This document shows, one piece after another, positions 8,030 to 63,515 of a stretch of DNA of 64,000 nucleotides (the stretch's first letter is position 1; each line of letters starts with the position of its first letter). The position numbers and the translations under genes are program-made. This DNA comes from an uncultured virus (IMG/VR IMGVR_UViG_3300024999_000087) (lineage: Duplodnaviria > Heunggongvirae > Uroviricota > Caudoviricetes): the IMG/VR virus record IMGVR_UViG_3300024999_000087, one strand, 5' to 3'. The notes below the pieces were generated by a model. The model was not told the DNA's origin and made no database searches. It saw only the letters and a list, made by a program, of their open reading frames with translations.

Positions 8030-8653
8030 TCACCCGAACGGGGTTTCAACTACTTCCCCGGTTGCTGTGTTGATCCACCCCTCCCCACCAGAGGGAACAA
8101 CCCCATCCCCTATAACAAATTCTTCCTTGGTAGGTAGGATGGAAGGAGAAGGAGAAGGAGAAGGAGAAGGAGCCAGCGCGTCGCTTGCGTTTCGTTGGCC
8201 AATCGTTAACGACCGTTGAACGTCGTTAATTAGTGCCCCGTACTCTTCCGCCGTGATAGCCACATATCCCTTGCTTTTTAGCTCTAAATACAGGGCATTA
8301 TGTGTCTGAGCCATCCGGCTAAACCTGGCCTTGTCTCCCCTATTCTTGGCATCACTGGCCCACGGGTTATGCTGCTGCCAGTCGTGAATCACGTAATCAT
8401 CACCGTCTTTTTCGATCAATCGGAGGTCGGCAAGCACCTTCACGAACCCCTCGCAGTCGTCACCAGCCCATTCCGCTGCAAGGCAAATGTCTAACGCGTC
8501 CATGTTCGTCAGGCGGCCGTTAACGGCCGTTAACGAAACGTAGGTCCACAGGCAGATGAGGCTGTAAAACCCCTCGTACCCAGTTTGACGGATGAGCCGC
8601 TTGATTTTGTGGTGTTTTACTAGGTTGGTGGAAATGCGGATATCAGTGTTCAT
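8030..8653 (-). CDS. Putative replication initiator (lambda O-like position)
   Basis: wHTH-like N-terminus ending IHDWQQHN, PSPSPSPS linker, internal phased repeats, upstream of helicase/primase. Confidence 0.6.
   Translation of the reverse strand: MNTDIRISTNLVKHHKIKRLIRQTGYEGFYSLICLWTYVSLTAVNGRLTNMDALDICLAAEWAGDDCEGFVKVLADLRLIEKDGDDYVIHDWQQHNPWASDAKNRGDKARFSRMAQTHNALYLELKSKGYVAITAEEYGALINDVQRSLTIGQRNASDALAPSPSPSPSPSILPTKEEFVIGDGVVPSGGEGWINTATGEVVETPFG
8182..8230. repeat. Helically phased CGTT repeats (candidate iterons/origin)
   Basis: CGTT at 8193, 8204, 8214, 8224 (CGCT at 8182), 10-11 bp period inside the initiator-like gene. Confidence 0.4.
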
Positions 8654-9182
8654 TTTTGATTGATCTCCAACAGATACCACAGAAGTATTTTATTGCGTCG
8701 TCCTTGTCGTCCATTCTGCTGATTGCAAGGTCCATCGCATCTTCCACCTCATCTAGCGGCAGTAATTCCAAAAACTTTTTCAAACTTCTTTTTTTGAAAC
8801 CATCCGACAGTATCCATCCCGGAAATGAGTCCCTGTATATCTTTGCTACAGCTTCAACATCAGCCGATTCTCTTTCCTTTATTTTCTTGAGAAAGTCCCG
8901 ATAACCCTTGATCTGTGCTTCTTTCTCCTTTAATTGCTTTAGATTGTCTGCCATTGATGGGGTTACTGAAGATAACTGCACCGCACCATTCCCCCGGTTG
9001 CAGTCAAAACAAGACGTTATCAGGTTTTTGTCGTCATTGTCTCCCCCGGCAGAGACTGGTATCAAGTGGTCAACCTCAAGGATCACCTTCGGAGGACTGC
9101 TGCCGCAATACGCACACCTAAACCCATCACGCTTAAAGACCTCAAATCTCACCTTTTTTGATAACGCCTTTCTCTTAGCCAT
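8643..9182 (-). CDS. HNH endonuclease (McrA-like) protein
   Basis: RFEVFKRDGFRCAYCG...EVDHLIPVSAGG...NLITSCFDCNRG. Confidence 0.9.
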   Translation of the reverse strand: MAKRKALSKKVRFEVFKRDGFRCAYCGSSPPKVILEVDHLIPVSAGGDNDDKNLITSCFDCNRGNGAVQLSSVTPSMADNLKQLKEKEAQIKGYRDFLKKIKERESADVEAVAKIYRDSFPGWILSDGFKKRSLKKFLELLPLDEVEDAMDLAISRMDDKDDAIKYFCGICWRSIKNEH

Positions 9183-9191
9183 TGCCCCTCC

Positions 9192-9330
9192 AAACAAAAA
9201 AATGACTTCCCACCAGGATAAGCACCCACGGAGGCTAGACCGCCTCTTCCTTGCTTACCGGCCCCTGGTGAGAAGCCATTCTTTTGGAACAATTTTTTGT
9301 TCATTTCTGATACCCGTGGGTTTATAGGAC
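9192..9330 (-). promoter_or_regulatory. Structured leader/attenuator of the replication operon
   Basis: 17-bp stem 9264-9280/9201-9217 (two G-U pairs valid only on minus strand) followed by U-run; competing 8-bp pairing 9314-9321/9224-9231. Confidence 0.6.
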
Positions 9331-14785: not shown

Positions 14786-15117
14786 TCCATCACCTCATTA
14801 GATTGTTCATGCCATATTACAGGTTTTCTCCCCTTGCCCATCACAAGCCAAGATGAGGTTTGGGAAATCTTTGCCAGCAATAGCCAGGCATTTTTCTTGG
14901 CATTAGTCCGAGCTTGCGAAACGAAAGCCGGGATATTGATCATTTTTGTATTCTTGACTTCTACCGATACCACCCGCCCGTCCGGGGATTGGCAAACTAG
15001 GTCATCCGTGCTCAGTCCAGCGGTCGTGTCGGCCAGTATCGTCCAGTCGCGCCCGGTGAGCAGGTTCTTCGCCGCACGTTCGCCGCGTTTCCCTTTGTTC
15101 CGAGATTGTTTACCCAT
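14782..15117 (-). CDS. Holliday-junction resolvase (PD-(D/E)XK)
   Basis: SRNKGKRGER...DLV...VEVKN. Confidence 0.8.
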   Translation of the reverse strand: MGKQSRNKGKRGERAAKNLLTGRDWTILADTTAGLSTDDLVCQSPDGRVVSVEVKNTKMINIPAFVSQARTNAKKNAWLLLAKISQTSSWLVMGKGRKPVIWHEQSNEVME

Positions 15118-15658
15118 TGATAACCCTCTTCAATGCTCCACCACCCCCTTGTATAAACTGCTTGGCACTGGAGTGAATATCGCAGTCTTGAAAACCGAGG
15201 CATTGTTCCGCTGCGTAACGGTGATAGGCGGCTTCGAGAATATCTTCAAAATAGCCAAGATGTTTATCCTGCCGGTCCACTGCGATACGAGCCTTCCATT
15301 TGCCAGCATCCTTGTTCCAATAAACCCCCTTTACCCCAGAAGTATTGTCACCCCTCATGCCGCAATTCCTATTTTGACATTGCTGCGTAGCCTCGCGCAG
15401 GTTAATACGCCGGTTGTCGGACCTGATTCGGTTTTTGTGATCTACCGTGTTTCCAGGCATATACCCATCGGTGTATAAGATCGCCAAGCGATGGGCCTTG
15501 TAATTCTTGCCATCTATCCTTATCGCGATATACCCACCATCATCAACACCACCAGCCACACCCCCCTCAGCCCGAGTCCCGATAGATATCTTCCAGTTAA
15601 ACACCCCAGTGTCAGGGTTGTAGTCCAACACCTCTCTTAATCTTCCCTGCGTCAGCAT
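15110..15658 (-). CDS. HNH homing endonuclease (copy 2)
   Basis: AHRLAILYTDGYMP..VDHKNRIRSDNRRINLRE; paralog of 4865-5392. Confidence 0.92.
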   Translation of the reverse strand: MLTQGRLREVLDYNPDTGVFNWKISIGTRAEGGVAGGVDDGGYIAIRIDGKNYKAHRLAILYTDGYMPGNTVDHKNRIRSDNRRINLREATQQCQNRNCGMRGDNTSGVKGVYWNKDAGKWKARIAVDRQDKHLGYFEDILEAAYHRYAAEQCLGFQDCDIHSSAKQFIQGGGGALKRVING

Positions 15659-18469: not shown

Positions 18470-19531
18470 ATGAGAAAGGAAGACAGGCTGGATTTTTTGA
18501 AGGGATTAAAAAAGAAGATGGCGGAAATGGAACTGAATCAGGTGAATTTTGCCAATTTGGTTGGGGTGTCGGCGGTTACCGTGTCGAGATGGTTTTCACC
18601 CAACACTGAAGATTTTCCCAGCGATGAGTCCCTAGAGAAAGTATGTTCAGCTTTAGGGATGACCGAGGATGATATCATTGCCATAGTCAATCCGCCCAAA
18701 CAGGTCAGGACAAAACCACCTACAGTGGTGTCAATCCCATCCGACTACATGGCAGTTGATGACGTTGTGCAAACCCTATCTACAGTATCAGCCTCATTTA
18801 TCAAGGCCGACGCTCGATTAAAGTTTTGGGGGCAACTAATTGAGGCATTACCAATGCCAGTGATGGTGGTCCGGGACGGAATTATTTACGTGCAGAACAG
18901 AGCCAGCAGAGCCATATGGATAGGAATAGGGAAACCACTACGCGAGTCATGCCATGACCCACGGTGCAAGGAAGTGGGTCATTGTGACATTGAAGTGGCA
19001 CTAGACAGCAGCCGGGATATTGAGAGATACAAAAAATTAGGAGATGATTATTATAAGGTTGTTACTGGTCATTTCAGCGCGAATAATCATAACTACAACG
19101 TGGTGGTGATAACAGAAATCAATGAATGTTATGTTAATTCTGAAAGACTAGCCACCATCCAGGAAGAAAGAAATTTCCTATCAAATAATTTATTCGAAAC
19201 CCCGGAATGTTATTTTAATACACATGGCAAGGTCAGTTACGTAAACAAATCGTTTATGAAGTTATTTGAAATTGATAAGAAAGATATACAGACATCGGAC
19301 GATTTACACATTATGTTAAGCAGAAAATTATTCTATCTCGGCCATGTCTCAAAAGCGATTGATGATGCCAGAGATAACGGAAAGCCTATTGAGGTGCAAG
19401 CCAAGTTGAAAAACAACAAGACGATTAATTTTATATTAACGCCGCATGTAGTAGACGGAGTATCACGCGGGGTGTTGGTCGTGTGCTTAACGGCGGAACT
19501 GTACGCATGTCTGAAGGAGGCGAATCTATGA
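18470..19531 (+). CDS. CI-position XRE repressor with two C-terminal PAS-like domains
   Basis: HTH (LNQVNFANLVGVSAVTVSRWF); PAS-like LIEALPMPVMVVRDGIIYVQNRA and FNTHGKVSYVNKSFMKLF; no S24 peptidase motif seen. Confidence 0.75.
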   Translation: MRKEDRLDFLKGLKKKMAEMELNQVNFANLVGVSAVTVSRWFSPNTEDFPSDESLEKVCSALGMTEDDIIAIVNPPKQVRTKPPTVVSIPSDYMAVDDVVQTLSTVSASFIKADARLKFWGQLIEALPMPVMVVRDGIIYVQNRASRAIWIGIGKPLRESCHDPRCKEVGHCDIEVALDSSRDIERYKKLGDDYYKVVTGHFSANNHNYNVVVITEINECYVNSERLATIQEERNFLSNNLFETPECYFNTHGKVSYVNKSFMKLFEIDKKDIQTSDDLHIMLSRKLFYLGHVSKAIDDARDNGKPIEVQAKLKNNKTINFILTPHVVDGVSRGVLVVCLTAELYACLKEANL

Positions 19532-20634
19532 GCGCAATCGTTAGAGAAAAACCGAAAGGTTCAGGCCACTGGTACGTTTTCGTCAATGACCAAGGCCACC
19601 GCCGAGCCGCGAAGATGCCCAATCGCAAGACCGCCGAGGTGATTGCCAAAGAAATCAACGCTGAGATGATCGCCGGGAAATTCAATCTCGGGGCTAAGGA
19701 GGCTGGCACGGTGCGTGAGTATGCTGAACGGTGGATGGAACACTCGACGGTAAAGCCTGCTACCCGCAGCAACTATATCTCTATCCTGACCACCCACATT
19801 TACCCCAAGTTTGCAGATAAGCCAGTAGATCAGATCAAGCGAGGAGATGTTAAAGACTTCCTGAAGAAGAAAATCAAGGACGGACTGAGCTTGTCCACAG
19901 CCAAGAATATCAAGGCGGCACTCTACAATATATTTGAAACCGCGCTGGATGATGAGGCTATCCCCTCAAACCCTGCAAGTCGGGTCGGTGAACTGGTAGC
20001 GAGGAATCAGAAGGCGCACACTACCGGCAAGGCTGGCTTCTTCGCCCCGGAAGAACTGACTAAATTGCTAAACGCTTTTCTCAAGTATCGACCGCAACAC
20101 TACTTACTTGCGTTGTTATTGGCACGTACAGGTATGAGGGTTGGGGAGGCTGTAGCGCTGCAATGGCGCGACTGCAACTTCGACACTAAGCAGATATCAG
20201 TGAGACGGGCGAAATCGAGGACGGTCATTGACACTACCAAATCAGGCAAGGATCGCCAGGTGGATATGTCAGACCAACTCTCCACAGAGTTGCGAAAGAA
20301 GCGCACCGAGGCCGTTTCTGAATCACTCAGGACTGGGAAAAGGTCAGATTATATATTCGTCGGAAGGACAAGTGCGACGCTCGACCCTACTGCATGGCGT
20401 AAGCGCAACTTCGATCCGATGTGCGAAAAGGCGGGACTGGGGAAAAGGTTGGTGAAGGATCTCCGGCATACTTATGCATCATTACTCCTGTACCACGGCA
20501 AGAGCCTGAAATATGTTCAGCAGCAACTCGGCCACCACTCGATCAAGATTACGGCAGACACGTACTCACATCTTATCAAGAACCCGGAGCATGGGACGGT
20601 TAATGTGCTGGACGATGTAGCGGAGGGGGAGTGA
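19528..20634 (+). CDS. int: Tyrosine integrase
   Basis: TGMRVGEAVAL, KDLRHTYAS, LGHHSIKITADTYSH; GGAGG RBS; adjacent att core. Confidence 0.96.
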   Translation: MSAIVREKPKGSGHWYVFVNDQGHRRAAKMPNRKTAEVIAKEINAEMIAGKFNLGAKEAGTVREYAERWMEHSTVKPATRSNYISILTTHIYPKFADKPVDQIKRGDVKDFLKKKIKDGLSLSTAKNIKAALYNIFETALDDEAIPSNPASRVGELVARNQKAHTTGKAGFFAPEELTKLLNAFLKYRPQHYLLALLLARTGMRVGEAVALQWRDCNFDTKQISVRRAKSRTVIDTTKSGKDRQVDMSDQLSTELRKKRTEAVSESLRTGKRSDYIFVGRTSATLDPTAWRKRNFDPMCEKAGLGKRLVKDLRHTYASLLLYHGKSLKYVQQQLGHHSIKITADTYSHLIKNPEHGTVNVLDDVAEGE

Positions 20635-20883: not shown

Positions 20884-21462
20884 TCAGGTTGACTTGTTAG
20901 GGACCAATGCGGCGATTTTCTTTTTTACCCAATCCTCACCTTTCTGCGAGACGAGATAATTGTATGCTGTAGAGTCTTCGTTGCACTCGTTCCACCCTAC
21001 TTCTACCTCACTCTCAAATCTGATCATTGCCGCAGTTATTTTGTCGTTAAACAGGCCAAGGTTTATACCCTTGTTGTCAACTTTTATTTGTGCGCCCCAC
21101 TTGCCGCTTCGCTTATCATAGTGAACGCCCCTAACCCCCGACGTATTTTTTGCAGAGACTTTTGAATTTCGGAGATTGCACTTCTGCGTAACTTCTCTTA
21201 GGTTCTCGATCCTGTTATCATCTTTTATGTGATTGATATGGTCAACCACATTCTCAGGGAGATACCCATGATGCCAGAGCCAGACGATTCGATGGACCCT
21301 GTATTCTTTCTTGTCAATCTTAACCAGCACATACCCTTCGTTGTGCCGTCTTGTTATGACCTCCCCTTTCCTCGCCGTGGGACTGGTACTAACCCTCCGC
21401 ACCAGCACACCATCCTCCCGATAATCGAACAACTCCCGTACTCGTTCCTGCGTCAGTTTCAT
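20884..21462 (-). CDS. HNH homing endonuclease (copy 3, more divergent)
   Basis: VHRIVW..HHG..VDHINHIKDDNRIENLRE; NTSGVRGV. Confidence 0.92.
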   Translation of the reverse strand: MKLTQERVRELFDYREDGVLVRRVSTSPTARKGEVITRRHNEGYVLVKIDKKEYRVHRIVWLWHHGYLPENVVDHINHIKDDNRIENLREVTQKCNLRNSKVSAKNTSGVRGVHYDKRSGKWGAQIKVDNKGINLGLFNDKITAAMIRFESEVEVGWNECNEDSTAYNYLVSQKGEDWVKKKIAALVPNKST

Positions 21463-33816: not shown

Positions 33817-36800
33817 CTACGAAAGAAAAGCCTGTATCATAGCAGTACGCCGTTTCTCGATATCATCAATTCGCTTTGAGTAGTCGCGGCCCGTGGTCTT
33901 CTCCAAATTCTTCAGTCGATTGACGATCTTCCGCCGCTTGTTCAACTGACCTTGCAGCCGGTCGATTCTCTTCAGCCTCATCAGGTCTGCGCGGTATTTC
34001 GGCAGCAAGGTTCTATCGGCCTCAACACGCTCCTTAATATCCCTGAGTTTGCTGCGCTCTTTGGCAAGTCTGCCGTTCCACAACTCTTCATTGCTCTTTG
34101 CGCCGCGCCCCATGTGCCAGTATGCCAACTTGCCGACGATGGGGATTGAGTCAAGCGACTTCAGCCCTTTGCCGTCGCCTGCTGACATGATATCGCGGCC
34201 TGCGCTGTCGATGAACTTAAACGGGGGGAGTATCTGTTTGGCGATTGCCGAGCCTACGCCCTCAGTCCGGGCCTTCCATGTGACGAACTTGCTTACACCA
34301 AATAATCTCAGCACGTTGTCAACCGTCCTATCTTCCAGCGATGTTTCCCTACTGAGCAGCAGGTCTTTCAACTCATCCGCCCCGGCATTAGCCAGTACCA
34401 GCATCATCGACAGATAGGCAAGGTTACGTATCCCTTCGATAACTTGGTTGCGCTCTCCGGTCTTGATCTTGTTGTATGCCTCATTCCGGTACACATCGAA
34501 CTGCTTCAGTGTGTAACTTTTGAGCATATAGAACAATCGCCCGTTGCCAGCCTTGAGGTATTGCTCTGACATTTCCGATAGTGCGGCAGGCTGGAAGTCA
34601 AGGAGTCGGCTGTAGACCAGGAGTTTTACGTTGTCGGTGATTGCCTTGTTTTGCAGGTCGATGATAACTGAATCGGTTTCTTCTTCAAAGATATGGTCAA
34701 TCTCCGCTCTCAGTTTATCCGGCTCAGATACGGCTCGTTTCTCGTACTTTTCCAGTGCCGCGTTAAGCAGAGATTCTTTACCGATAGCGTCCATCCTCTC
34801 AAGTTGTACTGCCTTGAAGACCTTGTTGACCACGTTGCTGAGTGTCCCTGCATCAGCGAACTCTTGGGCGATGCGCTCAATCCCTACGTCCTCCTTGGTT
34901 ATACGTGACTGTTTTGCCACCGACTTGTAGGCGTGTTTGATTGCTGAGGGCAGACCGTAAGCGTAGGCGGTCCATGCGAAGTCACCTATCTGTGTTATGG
35001 CTGAGGTGAAAGAACCCATCGTGTCGATGTAGGAGAGGTTCTTGTATGCCTGGACTAATCCCCTGGTGCCTGCTTCGTGGAACCTTGCCTTGAGGATATT
35101 CGTTACCTCTTGCTCCTGTGAACCGTCAATCTCGCCAGTTTTCAGAAGGTCAATGATATATGTGGCAATGTTGTCGTTATAGTCGCTCTGCGTTTTATAC
35201 CTGTCGAGGATAGCCTGATACGAGTCGATGTTATCCCTGATATCCTGCATCCGCTGTTCGTCGGGGTTCTCGCTTGCCTGAATCTCCCTCAGTTTCGCTT
35301 GCGCCTGGTGCAATGCTTTCTTCGCCTCGGAAACATTCTCAGGCATCCGCCCGAAGAACCTCCGCGCCTCGATATCCTTCCTCATGCTGTGGAGATAACT
35401 TACCAGAGCAGCATCCGACCCCATGTAATACCTGTTCAACTCCGGGGGGATGCTCTTTATCTTGCGCTCTTTCGTGTTGCTCGGTGCGTACAGTCCCGTG
35501 CCGCCGCCAAGGATAAGGTTAGCCACGATATCAGCCTGCATCTCAGGTGTCATATCAGCAACGGTAATCCCCATCTCCTTAGCCCGTTTCTTCAACGCAT
35601 CAGAGATGTTCGCCCGCTCCGGTCCCTTGCCGATAGCATCCAAGAATCCGCGTGAATCTTTGATGATACGGGGGGAATAGTCTTCGATGAACCCTACGTC
35701 ACGCCCTACGGCAATTGATTCATCGCGTATCCGCTTGAGCGTTTCCCTGTATGCCGCGTATTCATTCTCCATGCGGTACTTGGCAACCAACTCATTTATC
35801 TTGTCAGCGTCGCTGTTCTTCCTCGCCAGATCCCAGTCAGCGAAGTCGCCCCGGCTCATCTTCTTAGCCTTGTTCAGCAGACCCTGCACCGCCTTAACGT
35901 CCTTGCTATGCCCTGTGCCGATTGCAAAGTCCAACTCTCTAACCTTCGCCCGGAGTTTCGGATTGATGTTTCCCAACCGAGTAGAGACAGCACCAAGGAA
36001 CTTGTCAACTCCTGCGACCACCTGACGACCGACCGACTTGACGCTACGAATCGCCTCTGCCTTGCGATTTACGGCATAGGCTCGGTTCTGCGCGTATGCC
36101 TCTTCGCTGTTGGGGGTTGCAGATGCCGTGTACGACTTGGAGTACCGGATATCCCCTGCGTCCTCCATTATGTTGGGGGAGGTGCGATTATGTTTTGCCA
36201 CCAATTTATCAAACTCATCCCGCCCGTCCCGCAGTCCTTGGCTGGCAACACTCCTGACATTATCCTGTGCGTCTATTTCTTGGGCTGTATAATTTGACCC
36301 GTAGACATCATTGTATGCCTTGTATATCTCTCTTGGGTATTTGCTTCCACCCTTCAATGACGACGACTCACCCTTATACTGAAACTCACCGTTGGAGATT
36401 TCTACGTCAGAAATTGGCAATTCAAACCTGACTACGTTCTTGCCATATCCGCCAGCCCCCTCGTTGCCGGTGGCATCCTTTCCGCTCTCGGTTGCAGACA
36501 AGAAATCACCGTATCGTAGTTTCTTTATTACCGATTTTGATACATTTGCCCCGCGATACAGAATGATCTTGCCGTCTATTACTTCGGCCCCCATCGCCCT
36601 GAATGACTTTGTTTTATCTGCGATTTCTCTTCTCGACATGGACATCATTGTATCATTCTGCCCATTTTTATCAACACCAGACACCAGCACATCCTCAACC
36701 TTCTGCCCCGGTTTAAGCAACCCCTCCTTCTCCAGCATCCGCCGCAGTGTGACCCACGGCGGAATAGCCTTGCGCTGCGCCGGGGTAAGGTCGAGGCGGG

Positions 36801-39800
36801 CTTGTACTAGGCGGGACTCTGCTTCGCCGGTCTGCGTTAAATACGATGTAACCCTGTCTCCGGTGTAACCACTTGCATTGTCGAGCAACTTAATGACATC
36901 TAATGCCCTCTTCTCGTCTAACTCAAGAAAGAACTCACCATAAGCGGCAAACTCTGCTTCATTCATCGCCTTGTCGTACTTTACGCCAGTGCGCTTAGAG
37001 GCAACGTATCTTTCCCCCTTGAAGTCCTTTACGAAGTTGTCAATAAACTTCTTGTATTCTGCCGACTGCTTAATCTTTTCTTCCTGCTCGCGGTATCGCT
37101 TGTTAATCCTTTCTGCCAGTTCTGTATCGGTGGGAAGTGACTTATCGAATGGATTGCTCCCCTTGGCAAAACCTTCCTCGGTCTGGATAATATGCTGCGA
37201 TTCATGGGTTAGTGTAGACCGTTGCTCCTTGCTTGGAAGGCTTGAATTGATACGGACAATCCGTTTATTCTCGTCAAAGCTCCCCCGCTTAGTAGCCCCC
37301 ATATCCTCAAACCGCACCCGCACCTTAGCCAGTTGCGGATAGTCAGCGTAGAGTTTCGGATGGGTCAGTACGTCTTCCAGATACCCGTCCTTCATCTTCA
37401 CACTGGACAGGCTATCGTCTATCTCATACGACCACTGCCCTTTACCGGGGATTATCTCATACCACCCCGTATCGCGCCATATCTTACGCCGAGCCTCGCC
37501 GGATTTCTGCATCGCTTTGGCGCGGGATAGGGCTGAGGTGTCGGCTTGCTTGGCTTGGGGGCCTGCGAAGGATGCCAGAATGTCTGGGTTGGTGGGATTC
37601 CACGTTTGATTGAAAATGGATTTGATTTGGGTGGGGTCAAAGGCTACGTAAGAATCTCCTTCTCCCTCATCGTTGTTTTCGTTCTTATATACAAACCCGT
37701 CATAACCAGCATATTTCAACGCAGTAATAAGCCTTTGCGGGGTTGTTACATAATCCAAGTCTATACCTTTACTCTCCAATTGAGGTAAAAGTTCTGCTAC
37801 GCCAAAGTATCCTGGGTCTTCCACCCTGAGCGGGTTTTTTATTGCCAGAAATACCGGGATTAACCTTTCGCCATATTCAGACGCTTTGCCCTTCCCTGCA
37901 ACATGGTTAAGACCCCTGGTTGATTCTATTCTTCCGTTGGCTTGGGGGGAAGAACCAAAATGAAAACCTATGTCTGAGCCTGGCACTTGTTCAAAATGAT
38001 TAAAATCAGCCCTTGTAGCATGGTACAAAACTAACGGCGCTCCATCCTCGTCCACTATTTTACTTCCATCAAACCACTTCTTAAACGCCGCCATGTTCTG
38101 TATCTTTCTCATGGCAGAACTTAAACTCATCTTCGCATCCTGTGCAAACGAATTTACGCCAGCCTTGCCACTCGCCAGCTCAGCCCGCCCCTTCTCGCTC
38201 ATAGTCTGCACCATGAGTTTAGCCAGTGCCTTGCGCGTAGCCTTCAGGTCGGTGACGTATTGCTCTGAACCGAATCCCCGTGCGGAGAACTTGGCAATGA
38301 GGCTGTCAATCCATGCACGTATCTTAGCGGCAATCTTGCGAAACTTTCTGGGGGATTGTGCCGCTACCTCGTTCCAGAATGACGGGTTATCAAACGAATC
38401 ACCAAGGAGGTCGGCAATGATTTCCCGGCGAAGATTGATATCATTGCCAGTGAAACTTATCTTGTCACGATACTTGTCAACGTCCTTGAGAAGCGGAGAC
38501 ACGATATCGTACAAGTCTTGATACTGCTGCGGATGGGATGTTTCAAGGTGGTGCGCCAGTTCATGTCCATACACTGTATGCGGGGCAATGCCTGTGCGCG
38601 GGTCGATGAAGATGTATTCAGAGAGTTTGTTATTCGGGACTATCAGGCCGTTGGTACTGAAGACATCACCGAGATTAGCCCAGACTATTTTTCTGCCAAA
38701 GATTTCAGCCAGTCGCTCTGCACTTTCAAAATCGCTGCGCGGCACTCCGCCCATGTGGACTCGCCCGCTTCGATGCTTTTTAGCCAAGGTGTCAGGCAAA
38801 CGCCAGGGGGTGACTTTTCTCTCATCTCCGATAACCTTTTCCAGATCTCTTGCGATTTCGATTTGCTCATTGTTCACCTCTAATCCGAGTGGATTAAATA
38901 ACGATGTGTCAATTCCGCCAGACTGCTCCAGTGCCGCTACTACTCGGCGTTGGCCTGGGGTTAGGTCTGTCCTTCTGCCATCAGGCGGGATTGTGTCAGA
39001 GGCGTTGATTATATCAAATGCTTCTGTCTCAGGGGCAAAATATGCGGCGGCTTGGGAATACTTTATGCCCCCTGCACCCCTGACCTTCTTCTCAAAGTTG
39101 TCGAGGTGGTAGGCTGAGTTTGGGACTTCAAACTGATAGGTTTTCCCGGCGTTCTTGAAGATGTGCGGAAGTCCTTCAGGTTTCGCCCGACCGAGTAAAT
39201 ACTGTTCAGCGAACGACTTGGCACTATTCAGGTCATCATAAGCCTCGCCTATCTTCTCTTCAAAGCCTGATTCAACATGCCCTTCGTGCCGATACAGTTG
39301 CCACTTGTTCCCCCTCTTGTCGCTGACCAAATCATAATCACCGATGAGGCTATACCACTTCCGTCCTTGACTCGTCCGCTGCTTGGGCCATGCAATTGTC
39401 TTCGCGTTTTCAAACCCGTCTGCCGGTGCTGCTGGAGGAACTTGCTTCCGTGCTTCGGCAATAGCCTCAAGCATGTTGGCTTTCTTCGCGTCGTTCCCTA
39501 TCTTCGTGCGGTCGGCTACTATATGGGTCTTGCGCTCACGTTCCTCGTACTCCGTGTTCACTCCCGCAGCCTGTTCATCGGCCTTCGGGGGGGAGGGTTG
39601 AACAGGCGCGGTCTTCTCACTACTGGGCTGGGGGGATGCACCAGAGGTCACACTTTCCGTTACCTCCTGTGCAGCGGAAGAAGCCCCCTGCATGTCGACA
39701 CCGACATTACCAGCATTTATGTCGGTGTCGGCATGTACCACTTGTGCGGATGTGGTGACATCTTGTCTGGTTTTCCGGGCCTCAATTTCCCGATCTACTG

Positions 39801-42222
39801 CGTTCATTTTTCCGCTTACTTCAAAACTCGATTGCCCTCCAAGCTCAGGATTCACACGACCATTGATAATGTTTGGCGTTTTATTCGCCCAATCGTTTAG
39901 ATCATTCCTGGTCTTTTTCGCCTCAGCGGCCAGTTCCTTGTCGGAAAGATTGCCAAGATTTTTCACATACGGTTTTATAGCATCGCGGGCAGACAGCCAT
40001 GGATAATCTTTTAAAACCTTCGGCGATATTTTTTCACCACGATTATATGCTTCTTCTACAGAGTCCCGGTGAGAGCCTGAACCACTTGGGGCAGAGAAGG
40101 AAATATCCCCGCCATTTTTTGCATATTCTTCCCTGCTCATCTGCCAAGGCTCTTTTACACCCACCATCTCCCCACTTTCCTCAACCTTGGGAGTTAATGG
40201 GTTGGTTGGTGCGCTTATTCCAGCGTTCTTGTGGTACTGTGCAAGCGCTTCCGTTACAGTTTTCTTGGTATCGTAATCGCTGCCATTTGAAGCGTAATAT
40301 CCATCAGAAACTACTCGACCATTTTTACCCATGCGAGATGCGCTGATAATCATCCCCTTATCAAGCGCCTCTTTGCCAGATACCCCGAACCTCTCTCTAT
40401 TATCACCGTTGCCAAAGACCCCTTTTGTTGCTGCAATTACTTCCTTTTTCGCTTCTTTACTAGCAACCTTTTCGGTCCAATCCTTGTCCAATTTTTCAAG
40501 TCTTTTCTTGGCAACACTAACTACTTCGTCTGAATATTGTGCAAGACCGGGGACGTATTTGTATATCTCTCCACTTTCTATTCCAGAAAGGATAGATTTA
40601 ACATCACTTTCAGGCAGAACATTTTCCAACCTATAAAACCAGTCAGAAATTTCTTTTGGTTTGTCGTTTTCGACATTGCCCGGGGATATGGCGGATTCGA
40701 CATTGACCATCTCAGGACCAGATGTGCCGCCAGCATCCCGCAAGTTCCCCGTAACTGGTGCTTCCTGATACTGTGCGCCTGCCGACTCTCGGAGATTGCC
40801 CGTAACCTCAGCGCCAGCGTATGCGCTACCAGCAGCGTTGCGGACGGAGCCGGGTGAGGCGGATGGGTTGCGGGGGGGGATGGTGTCAGTTGTCCGGGTG
40901 GCCTCTGGTTCCGCCTGCTGATGCTCAGGCTGGATAGGCGTAGGATAGTATCGGTCGTCAACCTTCTTGACCTCGTAAGTCTCCTTCGTGCCGCCGAGTC
41001 GCTTAATCTCTTTGTTCGCACCGGAGACAGTCTTGTATCCCTTAGAAGGCTCTACTTGCCCCTGTGCGGTGTTTTCAGGCTGAAGGGTATCAGTGGCCGC
41101 GTTGACCTCCGGTTGTGCCGTGGGGGTATCCTCAGTGGCCTGAATCTGTGCGTTAGGCAATTCCTGTACTGGGGGTTCAATTGCCGGTTGGGGTATACTC
41201 TCAAGCGGGGGAGGCTGGGCAAATGATATCTCCGTGCCCGCCGCCGTGTTGCGAAGTGACTCAGGGGATTGGCTGCTCTGCCGTGCGCCTAGTGCCGGGG
41301 TGGTACGTGTGGCTTGGAGTGCTTTGCCTATCGGGCCGGAGGGGGGGGGGTGTGCCGGTTCCTCGCTTGGCATGTTCCGCGAAATTCCGCCCATTGCGCC
41401 ACCGAGTACGCCGCCGCCGACAGCACCCATCACGCCGCCGAATCCAGTTTCACTCAAACTCTCTGAGGTCAGTGGGTTGTCACCTGATGCAATCTGTTCA
41501 ACGGGACTCTGTACCAGTTCCTCAGCACCCTCAACCGCCGAACCTTCCAATGCGCCTCTTCCGATAGCCTTGGGTAAAGTCGTTGCGGCAAACTTCTCAG
41601 CCAGTTTAGCCCTGCCCTCTTTCGTCATCGCGGCAAGTGCCCAGTTCTGCGGGCCAAACTTGGTTTCTATCAGACCGACCGTACCGGCACCCAATGCGGC
41701 AATAGCCTTCGACTTAGCCGATTCCTGCGCCGTAGGATCGTTGATTATCTGCTTATCCCTGATACCGCCGAACGATGGGAGTGCTGCAATAGCCATAGGA
41801 CCGAGCCATGAAATAGCCTGACCAGCACCAGCGACTACCGGGGCGAGAGGGCCAGCGGCAGGAGAAAGAGCGGTGATGCCCTGTCCCAATGCACGGACCC
41901 CGAGCATCCCGGCCATTGACCCGCCAGCATTACCGACAGCCTCTTTAACCGTAGTCCAAGGCTTATCTGCGATATCGGAGAACCCTTGTACCGCTGTGGG
42001 ATTGGCATCAATGACAGACTGGCCGTATTGCTTGACTGCGTTGTCGGTGCCGATACCGGGGATGAAGTCAGCGGCGGCTTGACCGGCACCTTTGATGGTC
42101 GCGCCTAGTGCCTGCTTTGCAGATGCCTTGAATCCGCCTTCGGGTTTTACGTCAAAGATGTCATCAAACGCTCCAGCCTCGTCGCTCTTTACGCCAAATA
42201 TATCATCAAAATCGTTTGCCAT
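33817..42222 (-). CDS. Giant polyvalent internal virion/ejection protein (2801 aa)
   Basis: Gly/Ala-rich N-terminus; HELAH and HESQH zincin motifs; ART-PolyVal-like domain (FKKWFDGSKIVDEDGAPLVLYHAT...GYDG...VAFDPTQIKS); LPD23-like IWRDTGW...W.YEIDDS. Confidence 0.85.
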   Translation of the reverse strand: MANDFDDIFGVKSDEAGAFDDIFDVKPEGGFKASAKQALGATIKGAGQAAADFIPGIGTDNAVKQYGQSVIDANPTAVQGFSDIADKPWTTVKEAVGNAGGSMAGMLGVRALGQGITALSPAAGPLAPVVAGAGQAISWLGPMAIAALPSFGGIRDKQIINDPTAQESAKSKAIAALGAGTVGLIETKFGPQNWALAAMTKEGRAKLAEKFAATTLPKAIGRGALEGSAVEGAEELVQSPVEQIASGDNPLTSESLSETGFGGVMGAVGGGVLGGAMGGISRNMPSEEPAHPPPSGPIGKALQATRTTPALGARQSSQSPESLRNTAAGTEISFAQPPPLESIPQPAIEPPVQELPNAQIQATEDTPTAQPEVNAATDTLQPENTAQGQVEPSKGYKTVSGANKEIKRLGGTKETYEVKKVDDRYYPTPIQPEHQQAEPEATRTTDTIPPRNPSASPGSVRNAAGSAYAGAEVTGNLRESAGAQYQEAPVTGNLRDAGGTSGPEMVNVESAISPGNVENDKPKEISDWFYRLENVLPESDVKSILSGIESGEIYKYVPGLAQYSDEVVSVAKKRLEKLDKDWTEKVASKEAKKEVIAATKGVFGNGDNRERFGVSGKEALDKGMIISASRMGKNGRVVSDGYYASNGSDYDTKKTVTEALAQYHKNAGISAPTNPLTPKVEESGEMVGVKEPWQMSREEYAKNGGDISFSAPSGSGSHRDSVEEAYNRGEKISPKVLKDYPWLSARDAIKPYVKNLGNLSDKELAAEAKKTRNDLNDWANKTPNIINGRVNPELGGQSSFEVSGKMNAVDREIEARKTRQDVTTSAQVVHADTDINAGNVGVDMQGASSAAQEVTESVTSGASPQPSSEKTAPVQPSPPKADEQAAGVNTEYEERERKTHIVADRTKIGNDAKKANMLEAIAEARKQVPPAAPADGFENAKTIAWPKQRTSQGRKWYSLIGDYDLVSDKRGNKWQLYRHEGHVESGFEEKIGEAYDDLNSAKSFAEQYLLGRAKPEGLPHIFKNAGKTYQFEVPNSAYHLDNFEKKVRGAGGIKYSQAAAYFAPETEAFDIINASDTIPPDGRRTDLTPGQRRVVAALEQSGGIDTSLFNPLGLEVNNEQIEIARDLEKVIGDERKVTPWRLPDTLAKKHRSGRVHMGGVPRSDFESAERLAEIFGRKIVWANLGDVFSTNGLIVPNNKLSEYIFIDPRTGIAPHTVYGHELAHHLETSHPQQYQDLYDIVSPLLKDVDKYRDKISFTGNDINLRREIIADLLGDSFDNPSFWNEVAAQSPRKFRKIAAKIRAWIDSLIAKFSARGFGSEQYVTDLKATRKALAKLMVQTMSEKGRAELASGKAGVNSFAQDAKMSLSSAMRKIQNMAAFKKWFDGSKIVDEDGAPLVLYHATRADFNHFEQVPGSDIGFHFGSSPQANGRIESTRGLNHVAGKGKASEYGERLIPVFLAIKNPLRVEDPGYFGVAELLPQLESKGIDLDYVTTPQRLITALKYAGYDGFVYKNENNDEGEGDSYVAFDPTQIKSIFNQTWNPTNPDILASFAGPQAKQADTSALSRAKAMQKSGEARRKIWRDTGWYEIIPGKGQWSYEIDDSLSSVKMKDGYLEDVLTHPKLYADYPQLAKVRVRFEDMGATKRGSFDENKRIVRINSSLPSKEQRSTLTHESQHIIQTEEGFAKGSNPFDKSLPTDTELAERINKRYREQEEKIKQSAEYKKFIDNFVKDFKGERYVASKRTGVKYDKAMNEAEFAAYGEFFLELDEKRALDVIKLLDNASGYTGDRVTSYLTQTGEAESRLVQARLDLTPAQRKAIPPWVTLRRMLEKEGLLKPGQKVEDVLVSGVDKNGQNDTMMSMSRREIADKTKSFRAMGAEVIDGKIILYRGANVSKSVIKKLRYGDFLSATESGKDATGNEGAGGYGKNVVRFELPISDVEISNGEFQYKGESSSLKGGSKYPREIYKAYNDVYGSNYTAQEIDAQDNVRSVASQGLRDGRDEFDKLVAKHNRTSPNIMEDAGDIRYSKSYTASATPNSEEAYAQNRAYAVNRKAEAIRSVKSVGRQVVAGVDKFLGAVSTRLGNINPKLRAKVRELDFAIGTGHSKDVKAVQGLLNKAKKMSRGDFADWDLARKNSDADKINELVAKYRMENEYAAYRETLKRIRDESIAVGRDVGFIEDYSPRIIKDSRGFLDAIGKGPERANISDALKKRAKEMGITVADMTPEMQADIVANLILGGGTGLYAPSNTKERKIKSIPPELNRYYMGSDAALVSYLHSMRKDIEARRFFGRMPENVSEAKKALHQAQAKLREIQASENPDEQRMQDIRDNIDSYQAILDRYKTQSDYNDNIATYIIDLLKTGEIDGSQEQEVTNILKARFHEAGTRGLVQAYKNLSYIDTMGSFTSAITQIGDFAWTAYAYGLPSAIKHAYKSVAKQSRITKEDVGIERIAQEFADAGTLSNVVNKVFKAVQLERMDAIGKESLLNAALEKYEKRAVSEPDKLRAEIDHIFEEETDSVIIDLQNKAITDNVKLLVYSRLLDFQPAALSEMSEQYLKAGNGRLFYMLKSYTLKQFDVYRNEAYNKIKTGERNQVIEGIRNLAYLSMMLVLANAGADELKDLLLSRETSLEDRTVDNVLRLFGVSKFVTWKARTEGVGSAIAKQILPPFKFIDSAGRDIMSAGDGKGLKSLDSIPIVGKLAYWHMGRGAKSNEELWNGRLAKERSKLRDIKERVEADRTLLPKYRADLMRLKRIDRLQGQLNKRRKIVNRLKNLEKTTGRDYSKRIDDIEKRRTAMIQAFLS

Positions 42223-42266
42223 TTATTGCGCCTTTGATTTGTGTTTTGAATAACTTAGTTGCGATG

Positions 42267-42340
42267 ATTATAACATATATTTGGAGCAATTGCAACGGAA
42301 ACATTTATTGCTTGAATGATTCCCCATGTTATGCGATACT
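42267..42340. promoter_or_regulatory. Divergent promoter pair (giant gene / small membrane gene)
   Basis: Minus TTGCAA-17-TATAAT (42295-42267); plus TTGAAT-17-GATACT with TGn (42312-42340). Confidence 0.65.
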
Positions 42341-42356
42341 TCAGCAGGAGGTCGAT

Positions 42357-42599
42357 ATGAAAAACAACACACTTTATGCCTGTGCCGCCATCGTTCTGGC
42401 AGCAGTTGGGATATACTATTACAACCAACCGAGGACGTATGAAGATTGCCTACTGGCAAACATGGACGGTGCCGAAACTACACAGGCCGCTCTATTCATT
42501 AGAGCAGCCTGCCAGAAGAAATTCCCCGAGTCATTCAAAGCCACACAAGCGAAATACCCTGAAGGTGCCTTTGATGACATTTTCTTTCCGAAAGACTAA
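42357..42599 (+). CDS. 80-aa membrane-anchored moron-like protein ending in GAFDDIF
   Basis: AGGAGG RBS, own promoter, N-terminal TM helix, two Cys in the soluble domain, opposite strand to the virion operon. Confidence 0.8.
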   Translation: MKNNTLYACAAIVLAAVGIYYYNQPRTYEDCLLANMDGAETTQAALFIRAACQKKFPESFKATQAKYPEGAFDDIFFPKD

Positions 42600-44005
42600 A
42601 TAGCCATCTGCGCCAACCGCTCCCGTATCTTCGCTATCATCTCCTGTTGCTTCTCAGGAGTTGCCGCGTCGAATGCCGCTTTGTACTTGGGGTTTCCGTT
42701 GATGATACCTATCTCTGACATTGCCCCCTCGCCGCCAATCTCCACAGCCCCACCAGGATTGTCAGGGTCTACTGCGTAGGGTACTTCTGTCGTGATGCCG
42801 GTTATCGGATCGGTGGTCTTCCTCGTTGTCACGGTAGCCTTCGTGTCTTTCCCCTGCATTGCCAGTATCTGAGACTTGAGTATATTACGCTCTACTGGAT
42901 CTTTTGAGGCAATGAGCCTATCCTGCAAATCGTTGAGTTGCTGTTTCCCGGCAAGGTCTAACTCTGCCCCCTTGGTCTGCGCTCCACGTAAGGCATTCTC
43001 GCCAGTTACATTTATAGCGTCAATGGCATTCCTCTCTCTTGCAGCCGCTGACACTAAATCCTGGCCCCTTACGTTGGTCATGTTCCTTTCGTCTTCTTGC
43101 CTGATGCCTGCCTCTACCTTCTCCCTGCCCATCCGCTGACGGTCAACAATCATCTCGCCAATTGTCTGAGGTTGTGGTGTTTCATTCTTAATCGGTCTTG
43201 CTCCGAAGAACTGCCCTCGCGGGGTGTTCTGGTATGCCTCGTATCGTGCCATCTGTGCAGTCGGGGCAACGGGTTGAGCCATGAATGCTTTCCTTGCGCC
43301 GAGTGACACACTGGGGTCAAAGGATACGTCAAGGCTTGACCTCTTGTCTTGTCTTGCCCCAAGCATCTCCCCCGGTGCCCTAACGGGTTTGTCAATCGGC
43401 ACCCCGTCTTTTGTCCATGCTGTTTTTCCGCCCCTGAGAGAAATCATTTCCCCGGTCTGAGAATCCTTTATCCAACCCTCGTCTGCTTTTAGAGGCTCTT
43501 GCTGGACCGCTTGTTTCGGCTGGAAGGTGTTTTCCCCCGGCAACAAAACATCGTCAGGCTGCAACTTCGGCAACGACTGTACTGGTTCAGTGTTTACGAT
43601 ATTCTTCCTTTCCGCTTCCGGCACAACCTCGCCAGTTACCGCAGTCCTGACCAGATTTGCACCCGCGTTAATGGGAACACCAAGGAGCCTGTTTGTTGGA
43701 TCAATCACTCCCCTTTTAATGAACTGTCCAGTAGCAGAAGCGATATCCCCCGGCGCTCTCCTGGCAATTACGCCTAGCCCGCTTGAAACGCCACCTTTCG
43801 CCATTGCTTCGCTTGCCAGCCTGCCAGTCTCCGCACCCCGCACTCCACCGGGAATGGATTCAGCAGAAGGCATAGGCACTTGAGCGTTTGCGCCTGCCGG
43901 TCTGCTTGCAGTTTTCAGCGCACCGGCACTCGGCATAGTCCCGCCACGCATGGCAACTGTCCCTGTGCCAAGGTGGGGATATTTTCTTTTCTTATCTTCG
44001 GCCAT
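42596..44005 (-). CDS. Putative ejection/internal virion protein
   Basis: Position before giant protein; low-complexity helical; TNVRGQDL motif. Confidence 0.55.
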   Translation of the reverse strand: MAEDKKRKYPHLGTGTVAMRGGTMPSAGALKTASRPAGANAQVPMPSAESIPGGVRGAETGRLASEAMAKGGVSSGLGVIARRAPGDIASATGQFIKRGVIDPTNRLLGVPINAGANLVRTAVTGEVVPEAERKNIVNTEPVQSLPKLQPDDVLLPGENTFQPKQAVQQEPLKADEGWIKDSQTGEMISLRGGKTAWTKDGVPIDKPVRAPGEMLGARQDKRSSLDVSFDPSVSLGARKAFMAQPVAPTAQMARYEAYQNTPRGQFFGARPIKNETPQPQTIGEMIVDRQRMGREKVEAGIRQEDERNMTNVRGQDLVSAAARERNAIDAINVTGENALRGAQTKGAELDLAGKQQLNDLQDRLIASKDPVERNILKSQILAMQGKDTKATVTTRKTTDPITGITTEVPYAVDPDNPGGAVEIGGEGAMSEIGIINGNPKYKAAFDAATPEKQQEMIAKIRERLAQMAI

Positions 44006-55493: not shown

Positions 55494-56438
55494 TCATCTT
55501 ATAGTTCTGTCGAGAAACTCCATTATTTCGTTAGGCGATTTCCCGACGAATTTATTCATCAGTTGTACGGGAGTCATATTCTGCATCGCGCCAGCCTCAT
55601 CGTGATGTGCCGCCGTTCCAGCTGGGATATCAGACAGGCTTTTGGGTACAGACTTTCCGGTGGCTTTCTTCTCGGCCTCTGCTGCTTTCATGGCGACTGT
55701 ATCCGTTGTATCGCCAACGGGGGCAGGGTGTGCGTCCTTGAATGCGGTTACCATGTCAATCACATCCTTTGCGGTGCCATGCTCAATGATGTTCATGTAG
55801 GCTGCTTTGATCGGGCCGGGGTGTTTGTCCACCCACTCCATAATCTCAGGTGCTGCCATAATATCGTCAAAGTCCTTATGGGCATCCCTGATCGTGCCGA
55901 AGTGCTTCTCAGCAATCGTGTCGTTCGTGGTCTTCATTACCGGGGCGAGGTCAGCGGAGATTTGTTTCTTCAGTTCCGCCATCTCTGCCCGGAGTTCTTT
56001 GACCACACTGGCGTTGCTATGCTCCATCAACTCCAGCAATTCCGGGAAGTCCTCTTTAACCGATTCCCTCAATGAATCCGTGGCCTCGGTCGTGCCGGTT
56101 GCTGCGTCCTGTTCTTTTGCAGCCTTCAGACTTTCAAGAAGGGCTTCTCTCTCTGCAAGGGTATTTCTCAGAGATTCGACCTCTTCTTTCGCGGCCTTAG
56201 CGTCATTTCTCGCCTCGACCAACTTCTCGTATTCGATGGTATGAACACCGTCTTTGGCAAGAATTACCGGCTTGACTTCTTCCTTCTGTTCTTCCTCTTT
56301 GACCTCTTCAGTGTCGAGGGCTGGCGTTTCCTCGATTGCTGTATCGCCATTACCCGTCAAGAAACGGGCCATCTGCTCGTCGGTCAATTCTCCTTCCAAC
56401 TTCTCAAAATACTGTTCTGCTTCCATGCTACGCTCCAT
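55494..56438 (-). CDS. Scaffolding protein
   Basis: Acidic coiled-coil between portal and MCP; ILAKDGVHTI.Y. Confidence 0.7.
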   Translation of the reverse strand: MERSMEAEQYFEKLEGELTDEQMARFLTGNGDTAIEETPALDTEEVKEEEQKEEVKPVILAKDGVHTIEYEKLVEARNDAKAAKEEVESLRNTLAEREALLESLKAAKEQDAATGTTEATDSLRESVKEDFPELLELMEHSNASVVKELRAEMAELKKQISADLAPVMKTTNDTIAEKHFGTIRDAHKDFDDIMAAPEIMEWVDKHPGPIKAAYMNIIEHGTAKDVIDMVTAFKDAHPAPVGDTTDTVAMKAAEAEKKATGKSVPKSLSDIPAGTAAHHDEAGAMQNMTPVQLMNKFVGKSPNEIMEFLDRTIR

Positions 56439-62978: not shown

Positions 62979-63515
62979 TTAAACAGAACAACCTTTATGC
63001 ATATCAATATACTGCTTGGCGGATGAATAGATATCACAGTCAGGGAACCCAAGACACTGCCCTGCTGCAAAACGAACGTAGGCTGCTTCTAAGATGGAAT
63101 CGAAAGACCCCAGATATTTTGCGCGGCTGTCAACTCTGATCTGAGCGTACCATTTTTTAGCCCGCTTGTGCCAGAGAACGCCCTTTACACCAGATGTATT
63201 GTCCTTCCGCATTCCACAGTTTCTGTTTTGGCATTGCCGCGATGCCTCTCGGAGATTCACTCGGCGGTTGTCCGTCCGTATCCTATTGATGTGATCAATT
63301 TCATTTTCCGGGAGATATCCATCTGTATACAGAATCGCTAGACGGTGTGCTGGATACATCTTCCCATCAACCCTAATTCTGATATACCCACAAGTATCCC
63401 GGCAACTAGTCTCAAACCCTGCCGGGGTGTTCCTAGCAGGCGATATCTTCCACCGGAATTTTCCTTCATCCGGGTTATAGCCCAAAATCTCGCGCAAGCG
63501 TTCTTGTGTAATCAT
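62979..63515 (-). CDS. HNH homing endonuclease (copy 4)
   Basis: AHRLAILYTDGYLPENEIDHINRIRTDNRRVNLRE; paralog of copies 1 and 2. Confidence 0.92.
   Translation of the reverse strand: MITQERLREILGYNPDEGKFRWKISPARNTPAGFETSCRDTCGYIRIRVDGKMYPAHRLAILYTDGYLPENEIDHINRIRTDNRRVNLREASRQCQNRNCGMRKDNTSGVKGVLWHKRAKKWYAQIRVDSRAKYLGSFDSILEAAYVRFAAGQCLGFPDCDIYSSAKQYIDMHKGCSV

Follow-up and report, generated by a model that had tools for sequence, protein, structure and literature searches.

A predicted envelope protein of temperate phages repeats the duplicated N-terminal tag of a giant polyvalent protein: a candidate for superinfection exclusion by peptide mimicry

Introduction

Sensitivity to exclusion by the envelope proteins SieA of phage P22, Imm of phage T4 and gp15 of phage HK97 is set by the ejection or tape-measure proteins of the incoming phage, and we know of no report that describes any of the three with a copy of an ejection-protein peptide. 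For the lipoprotein Ltp of the Streptococcus phage TP-J34, recognition of the incoming tape-measure protein is attributed to folded repeats and not to peptide mimicry. The locus described below bears on how phage exclusion proteins recognize their targets and on how huge polyvalent proteins are placed for ejection. Here, we describe a locus from the uncultured virus IMGVR_UViG_3300024999_000087 (Caudoviricetes), of which a stretch of 64,000 nucleotides, referred to as the window, was analysed. A small gene (42357..42599, + strand) encodes a protein of 80 amino acids, whose C-terminal tail repeats a motif that is found twice at the start of a giant polyvalent protein of 2801 amino acids (33817..42222, - strand). 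Like SieA, Imm and HK97 gp15, the small protein is a predicted phage envelope protein encoded by an extra gene in or near the structural genes (for SieA: PMC10883804, accessible part). Ltp is a surface-exposed, lipid-anchored exclusion lipoprotein of a prophage (PMC3952083, accessible part), and lipoboxes are also present in some members of the family described here; Ltp differs from the small protein in fold and host type.

The tail of the small protein matches the leader of the giant protein

The giant protein starts with MANDFDDIFGVKSDEAGAFDDIFDVKPEGG, and its residues 1-29 form a leader (42136..42222, - strand) with two motif copies, DFDDIF (42196-42213) and GAFDDIF (42154-42174). The small gene lies on the opposite strand between the giant gene and the gene for a protein of 469 amino acids, whose stop codon overlaps its own. 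Its product ends with YPEGAFDDIFFPKD and contains the motif GAFDDIF (42564..42584, + strand) six residues from the C-terminus. A first-pass annotation of the window had reported both the shared GAFDDIF and the two FDDIF copies of the giant, which is confirmed by the translations, and it had correctly described the small gene as an opposite-strand gene inside the virion operon (42357-42599, +, amid a minus-strand module). The start that it gave, 42154, belongs to the second motif copy of the giant on the minus strand; the small gene itself is real and starts at 42357 on the plus strand, preceded at a distance of 5 nucleotides by an AGGAGG ribosome-binding site (42346..42351, +).

The identity holds at the level of the protein and not of the DNA. 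The motif is encoded by GGT GCC TTT GAT GAC ATT TTC in the small gene and by GGA GCG TTT GAT GAC ATC TTT in the giant gene, and four of the seven codons thus differ synonymously, as stated in the first-pass annotation. The 64-kb window contains the degenerate FDDIF pattern TTYGAYGAYATHTTY three times, with two matches in the leader and one in the tail, where 0.00 matches are expected, and the pattern had no match in any of 100 shuffles. Synonymous codon differences were found in all four tail/leader pairs examined, which carry four different motifs; together with the co-variation of seven motif classes described below, they fit the earlier reading that the identity points to protein-level selection and not to a recent DNA duplication.

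The sequence FDDIF recalls the C-terminal tail of SSB. Mimicry of this tail was dropped as an explanation, as the SSB of the phage ends with GEDVPF and the small protein is predicted to be exported. The protein in scaffold position (55494-56438, - strand) contains KDFDDIM, a five-residue match to the first motif copy of the giant, which was judged to be a chance match, since the homologous region of a related phage does not follow the motif of that phage. A near-match in the scaffold-like protein of another contig (GIDENDFEGA in L128) was also judged to be due to chance.

The giant gene is located near the end of a minus-strand virion module, which comprises terminase, portal, major capsid protein, head-closure and further virion proteins according to PHROG and Pfam annotation. 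ART-PolyVal, LPD23 and M78/DUF6782-like peptidase domains place the giant among the polyvalent proteins as defined by Iyer et al. (2017): several unrelated effector and LPD domains are combined in one giant chain, and genes for portal, capsid and virion proteins flank it. By analogy with described proteins of this kind, the giant is probably packaged in the virion and ejected. For polyvalent proteins, packaging and subsequent injection have been suggested (Iyer et al. 2017, PMC5512222, accessible part). Phage phi24B has such a protein of 2811 amino acids with LPD domains, gp47, for which a role in ejection has been put forward and which was detected in the proteome of the virions (bioRxiv 10.64898/2026.04.10.717836, accessible part).

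Tail and leader co-vary across phages

When residues 1-300 of the giant protein were used as the query, 125 proteins matched at E<=0.001. Among the 120 of these 125 matches that were listed, the identity of the N-domain ranges from 31 to 78%, and the short leader ahead of it differs between relatives and is usually duplicated (FDDIF, LFDDLIP, FDQFD, LSDADVFG, FDFDxxGN). An internal repeat (5-mer, at most one mismatch) is present in 52 of the 87 distinct short leaders of the matches listed, versus 2 of 87 shuffled ones; the start codons of some giants were picked by eye.

For the analysis of co-variation, a first set of 36 loci with the giant N-domain and 12 further contigs was compiled, and 43 records were searched for the small-protein family. 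In all four records that contain it, the tail matches the leader of the same phage. Tail and leader share GAFDDIF in the window type; L031/G018 has EVDWESG in the tail and DVDWESG in the leader, G017 combines the tail NYFDQFD with the leader motifs NYFDRFE and NYFDRFD, and a Nitrosospira prophage (G002) combines EFFADKYGG with NLFAKKYGG and GFFSSKYGA. In a 4x4 matrix of best ungapped scores, the values on the diagonal are 38-44 versus 14-22 off the diagonal, and in a comparison with 86-87 other leaders, the cognate one ranked 1st, 1st, 3rd and 1st. L031 and G017 have small proteins with 59% identity in the body but unrelated tails. When 59 tails of 6-45 amino acids were scored against 87 leaders, 22 had a score above the highest one among 10 shuffles, where about 5 are expected by chance; the remaining 57 of 116 family representatives were skipped (4 without the domain pattern, 18 with tails shorter than 6 amino acids and 35 with tails longer than 45). 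Tails and leaders of giants therefore draw on a common repertoire of motifs.

A second set was obtained by scanning with the L031 and G017 small proteins, which gave 25 viral loci of the two-domain subfamily, mostly on contigs of 58-63 kb. The tail copies the leader in 15 of the 15 loci in which the small gene is complete and the giant is visible from its N-terminus; eight of the other loci have no giant N-terminus within the fetched DNA, and two have a truncated small gene. Examples of such pairs are the tail NFFDQFDG with the leader MANFFDQFD...NFFDQFDG, C-SALATEFGLN-C with KLADEFGL...SLAQEFGL, PGPWCAY with MAGPWDDY...EPWRQY, DLFDEFGI with MADLFDEFGI (twice) and ENPFKRFHE with NQFAKFH...ENPFSKFH. 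The giants of the second set have N-domains unlike that of the window and are nevertheless polyvalent (LPD38/39, LPD5, LPD1, LPD3, ART-PolyVal, ddrB-ParB), so that the rule is not confined to a single lineage. The cognate scores of 14 de-duplicated pairs add up to 532 versus a permuted mean of 303 (standard deviation 31, maximum 474), and none of 200,000 permutations reached 532. The cognate leader is the row maximum in 9 of the 14 rows; in the other rows, the motif of the top-scoring leader also occurs in the tail in question. Seven motif classes are involved in the co-variation. In the window and in most second-set loci, the small gene runs antisense within the virion operon; in other phages, the relative orientation of the small and the giant gene varies, as does the distance between them (0.1-7 kb).

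Some tails contain two different motif types in tandem (L186 10001-10408, L187 10001-10381, P0195 and P0203), such as LFDDLEP with PGPWCDY or NFFGQFD with DLFDEFDI, of which only one matches the giant of the same phage. These two-motif tails fit a widened range of exclusion.

The rule also extends to cultured phages. A tblastn search gave matches to the gene in 10 records, each from a Pseudomonas phage, and the three that were opened (LKA5, E220 and Atpa001) are classed as Hollowayvirus. In LKA5 (L190, NC_073675; 8956-9351, +) and E220 (L191; 8908-9303, +), an open reading frame of about 115 amino acids with a signal peptide and four cysteines is located on the opposite strand between gp56 and gp57 (or the corresponding genes). 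It is unannotated in both published genomes, and the region of LKA5 carries only predicted promoter and terminator features; the small-gene matches in phiC725A and F1Pa likewise lie under no annotated feature. The tail ...KKPWEEY... of the LKA5 and E220 proteins corresponds to the start of the 3863-amino-acid giant gp58, MADTSKPWEEF...EKPWEEF; the annotated large open reading frame of Atpa001 starts differently. Co-variation of tail and leader, the check that the first-pass annotation had set for its own reading, was thus found in the 15 second-set loci, the window, the Nitrosospira prophage, LKA5 and E220.

A C-terminal module of the upstream protein changes together with tail and leader

The 469-amino-acid protein (42596..44005, - strand) is encoded directly upstream of the giant in the operon, in the position of gp57 of LKA5 (phrog_11341 in relatives), and is proposed to be the docking partner of the giant, a role derived from the relatives. 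No PHROG or Pfam family matched it. Its C-terminal 50 amino acids (42599..42748, -), at the end that overlaps the small gene, form the proposed motif-binding module.

Exchange of the module is visible in pairs of closely related phages. The DNA of L181 and L178 is 88-96% identical over the aligned parts of 20 kb. The 300 amino acids of the giant past the leader (297/300 identical), the body of the small protein (83/98) and the first 150 amino acids of the upstream protein (150/150) are conserved, and the leaders, the tails and the last 45 amino acids of the upstream protein are unrelated. L173 and L174 show the same pattern of swaps (294/300 for the giant and 91/98 for the small-protein body). 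Tail, leader and module are hence swapped in concert. Between the start of the giant gene and the small gene, L181 (7168-9923) and L178 (7700-9960) also carry differing sets of small genes over 2-3 kb, one of which includes a DnaJ-like membrane protein, in genomes that are otherwise 93-96% identical; this stretch is a hot spot for accessory genes.

Across loci, the types of the C-terminal ~45 amino acids of the upstream protein track the motif class. Modules of the type ...ALK.NP..AAEFD.KYG... occur with leaders of the class N[FY]FD.[FY]D (5 loci), ...SR.EVE.AAK..G...D..I..L...GV.VS with L.[DQE]EFG[LI] (7 loci), ...GGYEFLGGDPAD.KNWRKV with PW..[YF] (4 loci and LKA5), ...G..Y.....G...VW.G.G... 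with leaders of the type [YL][LI]S[DE].[DE].. (L013, L011, L024 and L035), and ...SMG[ML].P.D[YF]GL with G.FDD(L)IP (L037 and L014). Over 31 loci, the similarity of leaders correlates with that of modules (Mantel r=0.45, a value not attained in any of 20,000 permutations), and the correlation persists in a partial Mantel test that controls for the N-domain of the giant and the preceding 120 amino acids of the upstream protein (r=0.43; 0 of 20,000 permutations); the 45-amino-acid leader slices take in some of the conserved N-domain in phages with short leaders, which adds noise to the Mantel test. In the giants P0016 and P0022, residues 1-65 contain duplicated leaders (DGFRF.GGDPS...SWE) that resemble the GGYEFLGGDPAD.KNW module type of upstream proteins elsewhere, as if the two sides of the pair had been exchanged.

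The small protein belongs to a family of predicted envelope proteins

The small protein consists of an N-terminal signal anchor, a two-helix domain with Cys31 and Cys52 of the PF28034 (VF_A0006-like) kind and the C-terminal tail. Its AF2 model (mean pLDDT 90) contains helices at residues 2-22, 28-36, 42-55 and 57-66; helix 2-22 is the membrane helix, the next two helices bear Cys31 and Cys52, respectively, and a short turn covers FDDI. The ribosome-binding site, the hydrophobic N-terminal helix and the cysteine pair of the first-pass annotation are accordingly all present.

An exhaustive search yielded 116 cluster representatives of the family at E<=1e-3. Their common plan is a hydrophobic N-terminus or signal peptide, a domain of about 35 amino acids with two invariant cysteines (C31 and C52 in an alignment of 40 sequences) and a variable C-terminal tail. 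The N-terminus is hydrophobic in 74 of 79 short members, and a lipobox-like site is present in 16 of 117 members; in the two-domain forms, the signal peptides are of the AxA type and the cysteines number 4-6, and an extra pair of cysteines flanks the motif in some tails. Because of these signal peptides or anchors, lipoboxes and conserved cysteines, the small proteins are predicted to be exported and to reside in the cell envelope.

The protein P0004, which is 99% identical to the small protein, has a precomputed assignment to the Pfam family PF28034.1, named VF_A0006, four-cysteine protein; the small protein of the window has one repeat of this type with two cysteines, not two repeats. No PHROG or Pfam family was matched by the small protein in the libraries searched, which did not include the PF28034 model. 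Cultured phages, searched at the DNA and protein levels with the small gene of the window and the giant N-domain, gave nothing useful. Locus scans with single proteins returned near-identical contigs only, the 40-sequence alignment was too diverse for such a scan, and a narrower alignment found 3 viral and 17 metagenome loci, mostly short contigs without a giant.

Within the class of G002, the small family is present in 13 of 400 genomes (a count that includes the unpublished genome G327). Among 11 of the small-family genomes that were searched again, none carries the giant N-domain, and their family members are mostly two-domain forms that end straight after the last cysteine domain. In the order to which G002 belongs, one of 401 genomes has the giant N-domain. 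Two records have truncated small genes, L188 (9815-10105) and L189 (10001-10108), one of 36 amino acids and one cut within the first domain, and these phages retain a giant with a duplicated leader. The truncated genes may be decayed copies.

Proposed mechanism and alternative explanations

We propose, with a probability of roughly one half (about 0.5), that the tail of the small protein competes with the leader of the giant for the module of the upstream protein and thereby brings about superinfection exclusion by peptide mimicry. The duplicated FDDIF tag of the giant would dock on the C-terminal module of the upstream protein (42596-44005), probably as the ejected proteins assemble in the envelope of the newly infected cell. 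The small protein would be held by its signal anchor and braced by a disulfide, and its flexible tail would show the tag in the periplasm. In a lysogen or an already infected cell, the tail would then compete with the leader of the incoming giant for this site, and phages with a tag of the same type could not deliver their DNA. Since tail and leader are identical and not complementary, competition for one binding site is suggested, for which the upstream module is the best candidate because it swaps with tail and leader. The export signals and disulfide-type cysteines point to a location of the tail in the periplasm, where incoming ejected proteins would assemble, and the accessory antisense gene, the temperate phage and the added non-self motifs of some tails fit superinfection exclusion by mimicry. 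Binding of the leader to the module, competition by the tail, expression from the prophage and the resulting exclusion are what we infer from these observations, which support the interpretation of the first-pass annotation overall.

Several results weigh against this proposal. The first-pass annotation had assigned a promoter of its own to the small gene; a consensus scan found no sigma-70-like promoter on the plus strand ahead of it and no terminator, and the only match nearby (42295-42267) faces the giant gene, while a weak TTGAAT-17-GATACT before the small gene was seen by eye only, along with its strong ribosome-binding site. The family is present in 4 of the 43 giant-bearing records searched and in 2 of 7 virus records that are at least 90% complete, so that the gene is dispensable. 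No other convincing carrier of a leader motif was found in 8 further contigs of phages with a giant, using a noisy maximal-segment score with a background of 33-44. L012 and L025 have similar leaders (0.63) and, as parsed, dissimilar modules (0.09). The module of the window scores 0.09-0.12 against those of L037 and L014, whose FDDLIP and FDDIP leaders most resemble FDDIF, and the partner of this phage is therefore assigned by analogy; by eye, its module resembles a divergent form of the NP..AA.FD type. The earlier suggestion that the partner might be another ejection protein, with 42596-44005 among those named, is supported by the co-variation of module and motif in relatives and, for the window's own protein, by analogy only. 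Furthermore, co-variation indicates a shared specificity and not the direction or purpose of the interaction.

In one alternative, the same mimicry is directed at another partner. The giant might engage a host envelope protein, which the decoy would saturate, and the upstream module might co-vary only through its adjacency to the tail. Acidic aromatic short motifs resemble the linear motifs that colicins use on Tol and Ton proteins, and the tail and the upstream C-terminus lie within the same ~250 bp at convergent gene ends, so that one recombination event could move both. A host target is nevertheless rather unlikely: near-isogenic phages carry unrelated motifs, with which a conserved host target would be hard to reconcile if these phages infect a common host, and the module tracks the leader class also in A1-type loci without a small gene (L037/L014; L013/L011/L024/L035; L023), with the partial Mantel test pointing the same way. 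We rate it as about equally improbable that the small protein serves the cycle of the resident phage, either as a periplasmic sensor or regulator of the ejected proteins of siblings, as in lysis inhibition, or by guarding progeny from ejecting into debris. Its envelope location, its matched specificity and its antisense position inside the virion operon in the window and most loci would agree with such a role. A sensor, however, would be expected to bear a surface complementary to the tag and not a copy of it, and tails with extra non-self motifs fit the exclusion of other types better.

A function inside the cytoplasm appears very unlikely. As an assembly placeholder or chaperone, the small protein could fill the docking module of the upstream protein until the giant is loaded into the capsid, which would explain both the three-way co-variation and the position of the gene inside the virion module; however, signal peptides, lipoboxes, conserved cysteine pairs and the cysteines that flank some motifs argue for export, and the absence of the gene from 39 of 43 related giant-bearing records indicates that it is not needed for assembly. 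The lowest probability, close to nil, is given to a similarity without function in the protein, due either to chance or to a repeat at the DNA level (a recently duplicated stretch, for example, or the inverted repeats that belong to an invertible segment). The motif copies of the window do lie as an imperfect inverted repeat, at a distance of about 400 bp. DNA inversion between them was rejected because orientation and spacing (0.1-7 kb) vary in other phages, and a tyrosine integrase but no invertase was seen in the annotated parts of the window. Given also the expectation of 0.00 for the pattern, the synonymous differences in all four pairs and the seven co-varying motif classes, this reading is to a large extent refuted already.

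A wider reading can be put forward more tentatively, at somewhat less than even odds. Temperate podophage-like viruses that have giant polyvalent ejection proteins might share an exchangeable peptide address code, in which the duplicated N-terminal tag of the giant, the receiver module on the preceding ejection protein and the exported decoy together define many mutually exclusive types of entry compatibility. These types would diversify by cassette swaps, and decoys with two tags would exclude two types.

Other features of the window

Besides the integrase gene (19483-20634) and a repressor-like gene, on account of which the phage is called temperate, the phage genome in the window contains genes for replication and recombination and an endolysin gene. 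A sigma-70-like promoter match (42267..42295, - strand; TTGCAA-17-TATAAT, 10/12, with an extended -10 TG) is directed at the giant gene and rests on consensus similarity only; it directly precedes that gene within what appears to be a single long late operon. The load of homing-type nucleases is unusually high for a phage of ~64 kb: four paralogous HNH endonucleases of phrog_99 (E 1e-56 to 1e-62) are encoded at 4865-5392, 15110-15658, 20884-21462 and 62979-63515, all on the minus strand, and a fifth HNH gene of another family is located at 8643-9197.

Comparison with known systems

The body of the small protein corresponds to one cysteine-pair repeat of PF28034, and the two-domain relatives have four cysteines. 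Chromosomal members of this family, from genomes without a giant, mostly end right after the domain, whereas the phage members add a variable mimic tail. VF_A0006 was not mentioned in the literature searched, with most subscription journals outside its scope. In colicin/immunity pairs, tightly linked genes have matching specificities, occur in many types and are exchanged as cassettes. The likeness is one of analogy only, as colicins and their immunity proteins have complementary surfaces, whereas the matching parts described here are identical peptides, which would compete.

With its ART-PolyVal and LPD domains, the giant is of one kind with the polyvalent proteins of Iyer et al. (PMC5512222, accessible part) and with gp47 of phi24B. 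A duplicated N-terminal tag, a link to the C-terminus of the upstream protein and an exported mimic are unmentioned in the accessible parts of that paper and of the phi24B gp47 study. In the same literature search, no description was found of an excluder with the tag of an ejection protein or of a leader-module code, and the PHROG and Pfam libraries, without the PF28034 model, revealed no sequence relation of the small protein to SieA, Imm or HK97 gp15.

The rule that the exported tail equals the leader of the giant, and that both track the C-terminal module of its neighbour, can be read from sequence. It spans groundwater phages and cultured Pseudomonas F116-like phages, and it recovered a gene that had been missed in the published genomes of LKA5 and E220. 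The rule predicts the pair of ejection proteins that are in contact and the site of this contact, the phages that a given prophage should exclude, and a switch of specificity by natural variants of the tail. If the address code is true, the sequence itself would reveal the specificity of exclusion, and a change of about 8 residues would suffice to re-target it. A block of DNA entry by envelope proteins is already known as such; a candidate excluder that copies the tag of the ejected protein appears, within the literature searched, to be new. Unlike in SieA, Imm and HK97 gp15, specificity would here reside in a short terminal tag, which is identical in the candidate excluder and the ejected protein and is exchanged as a module.

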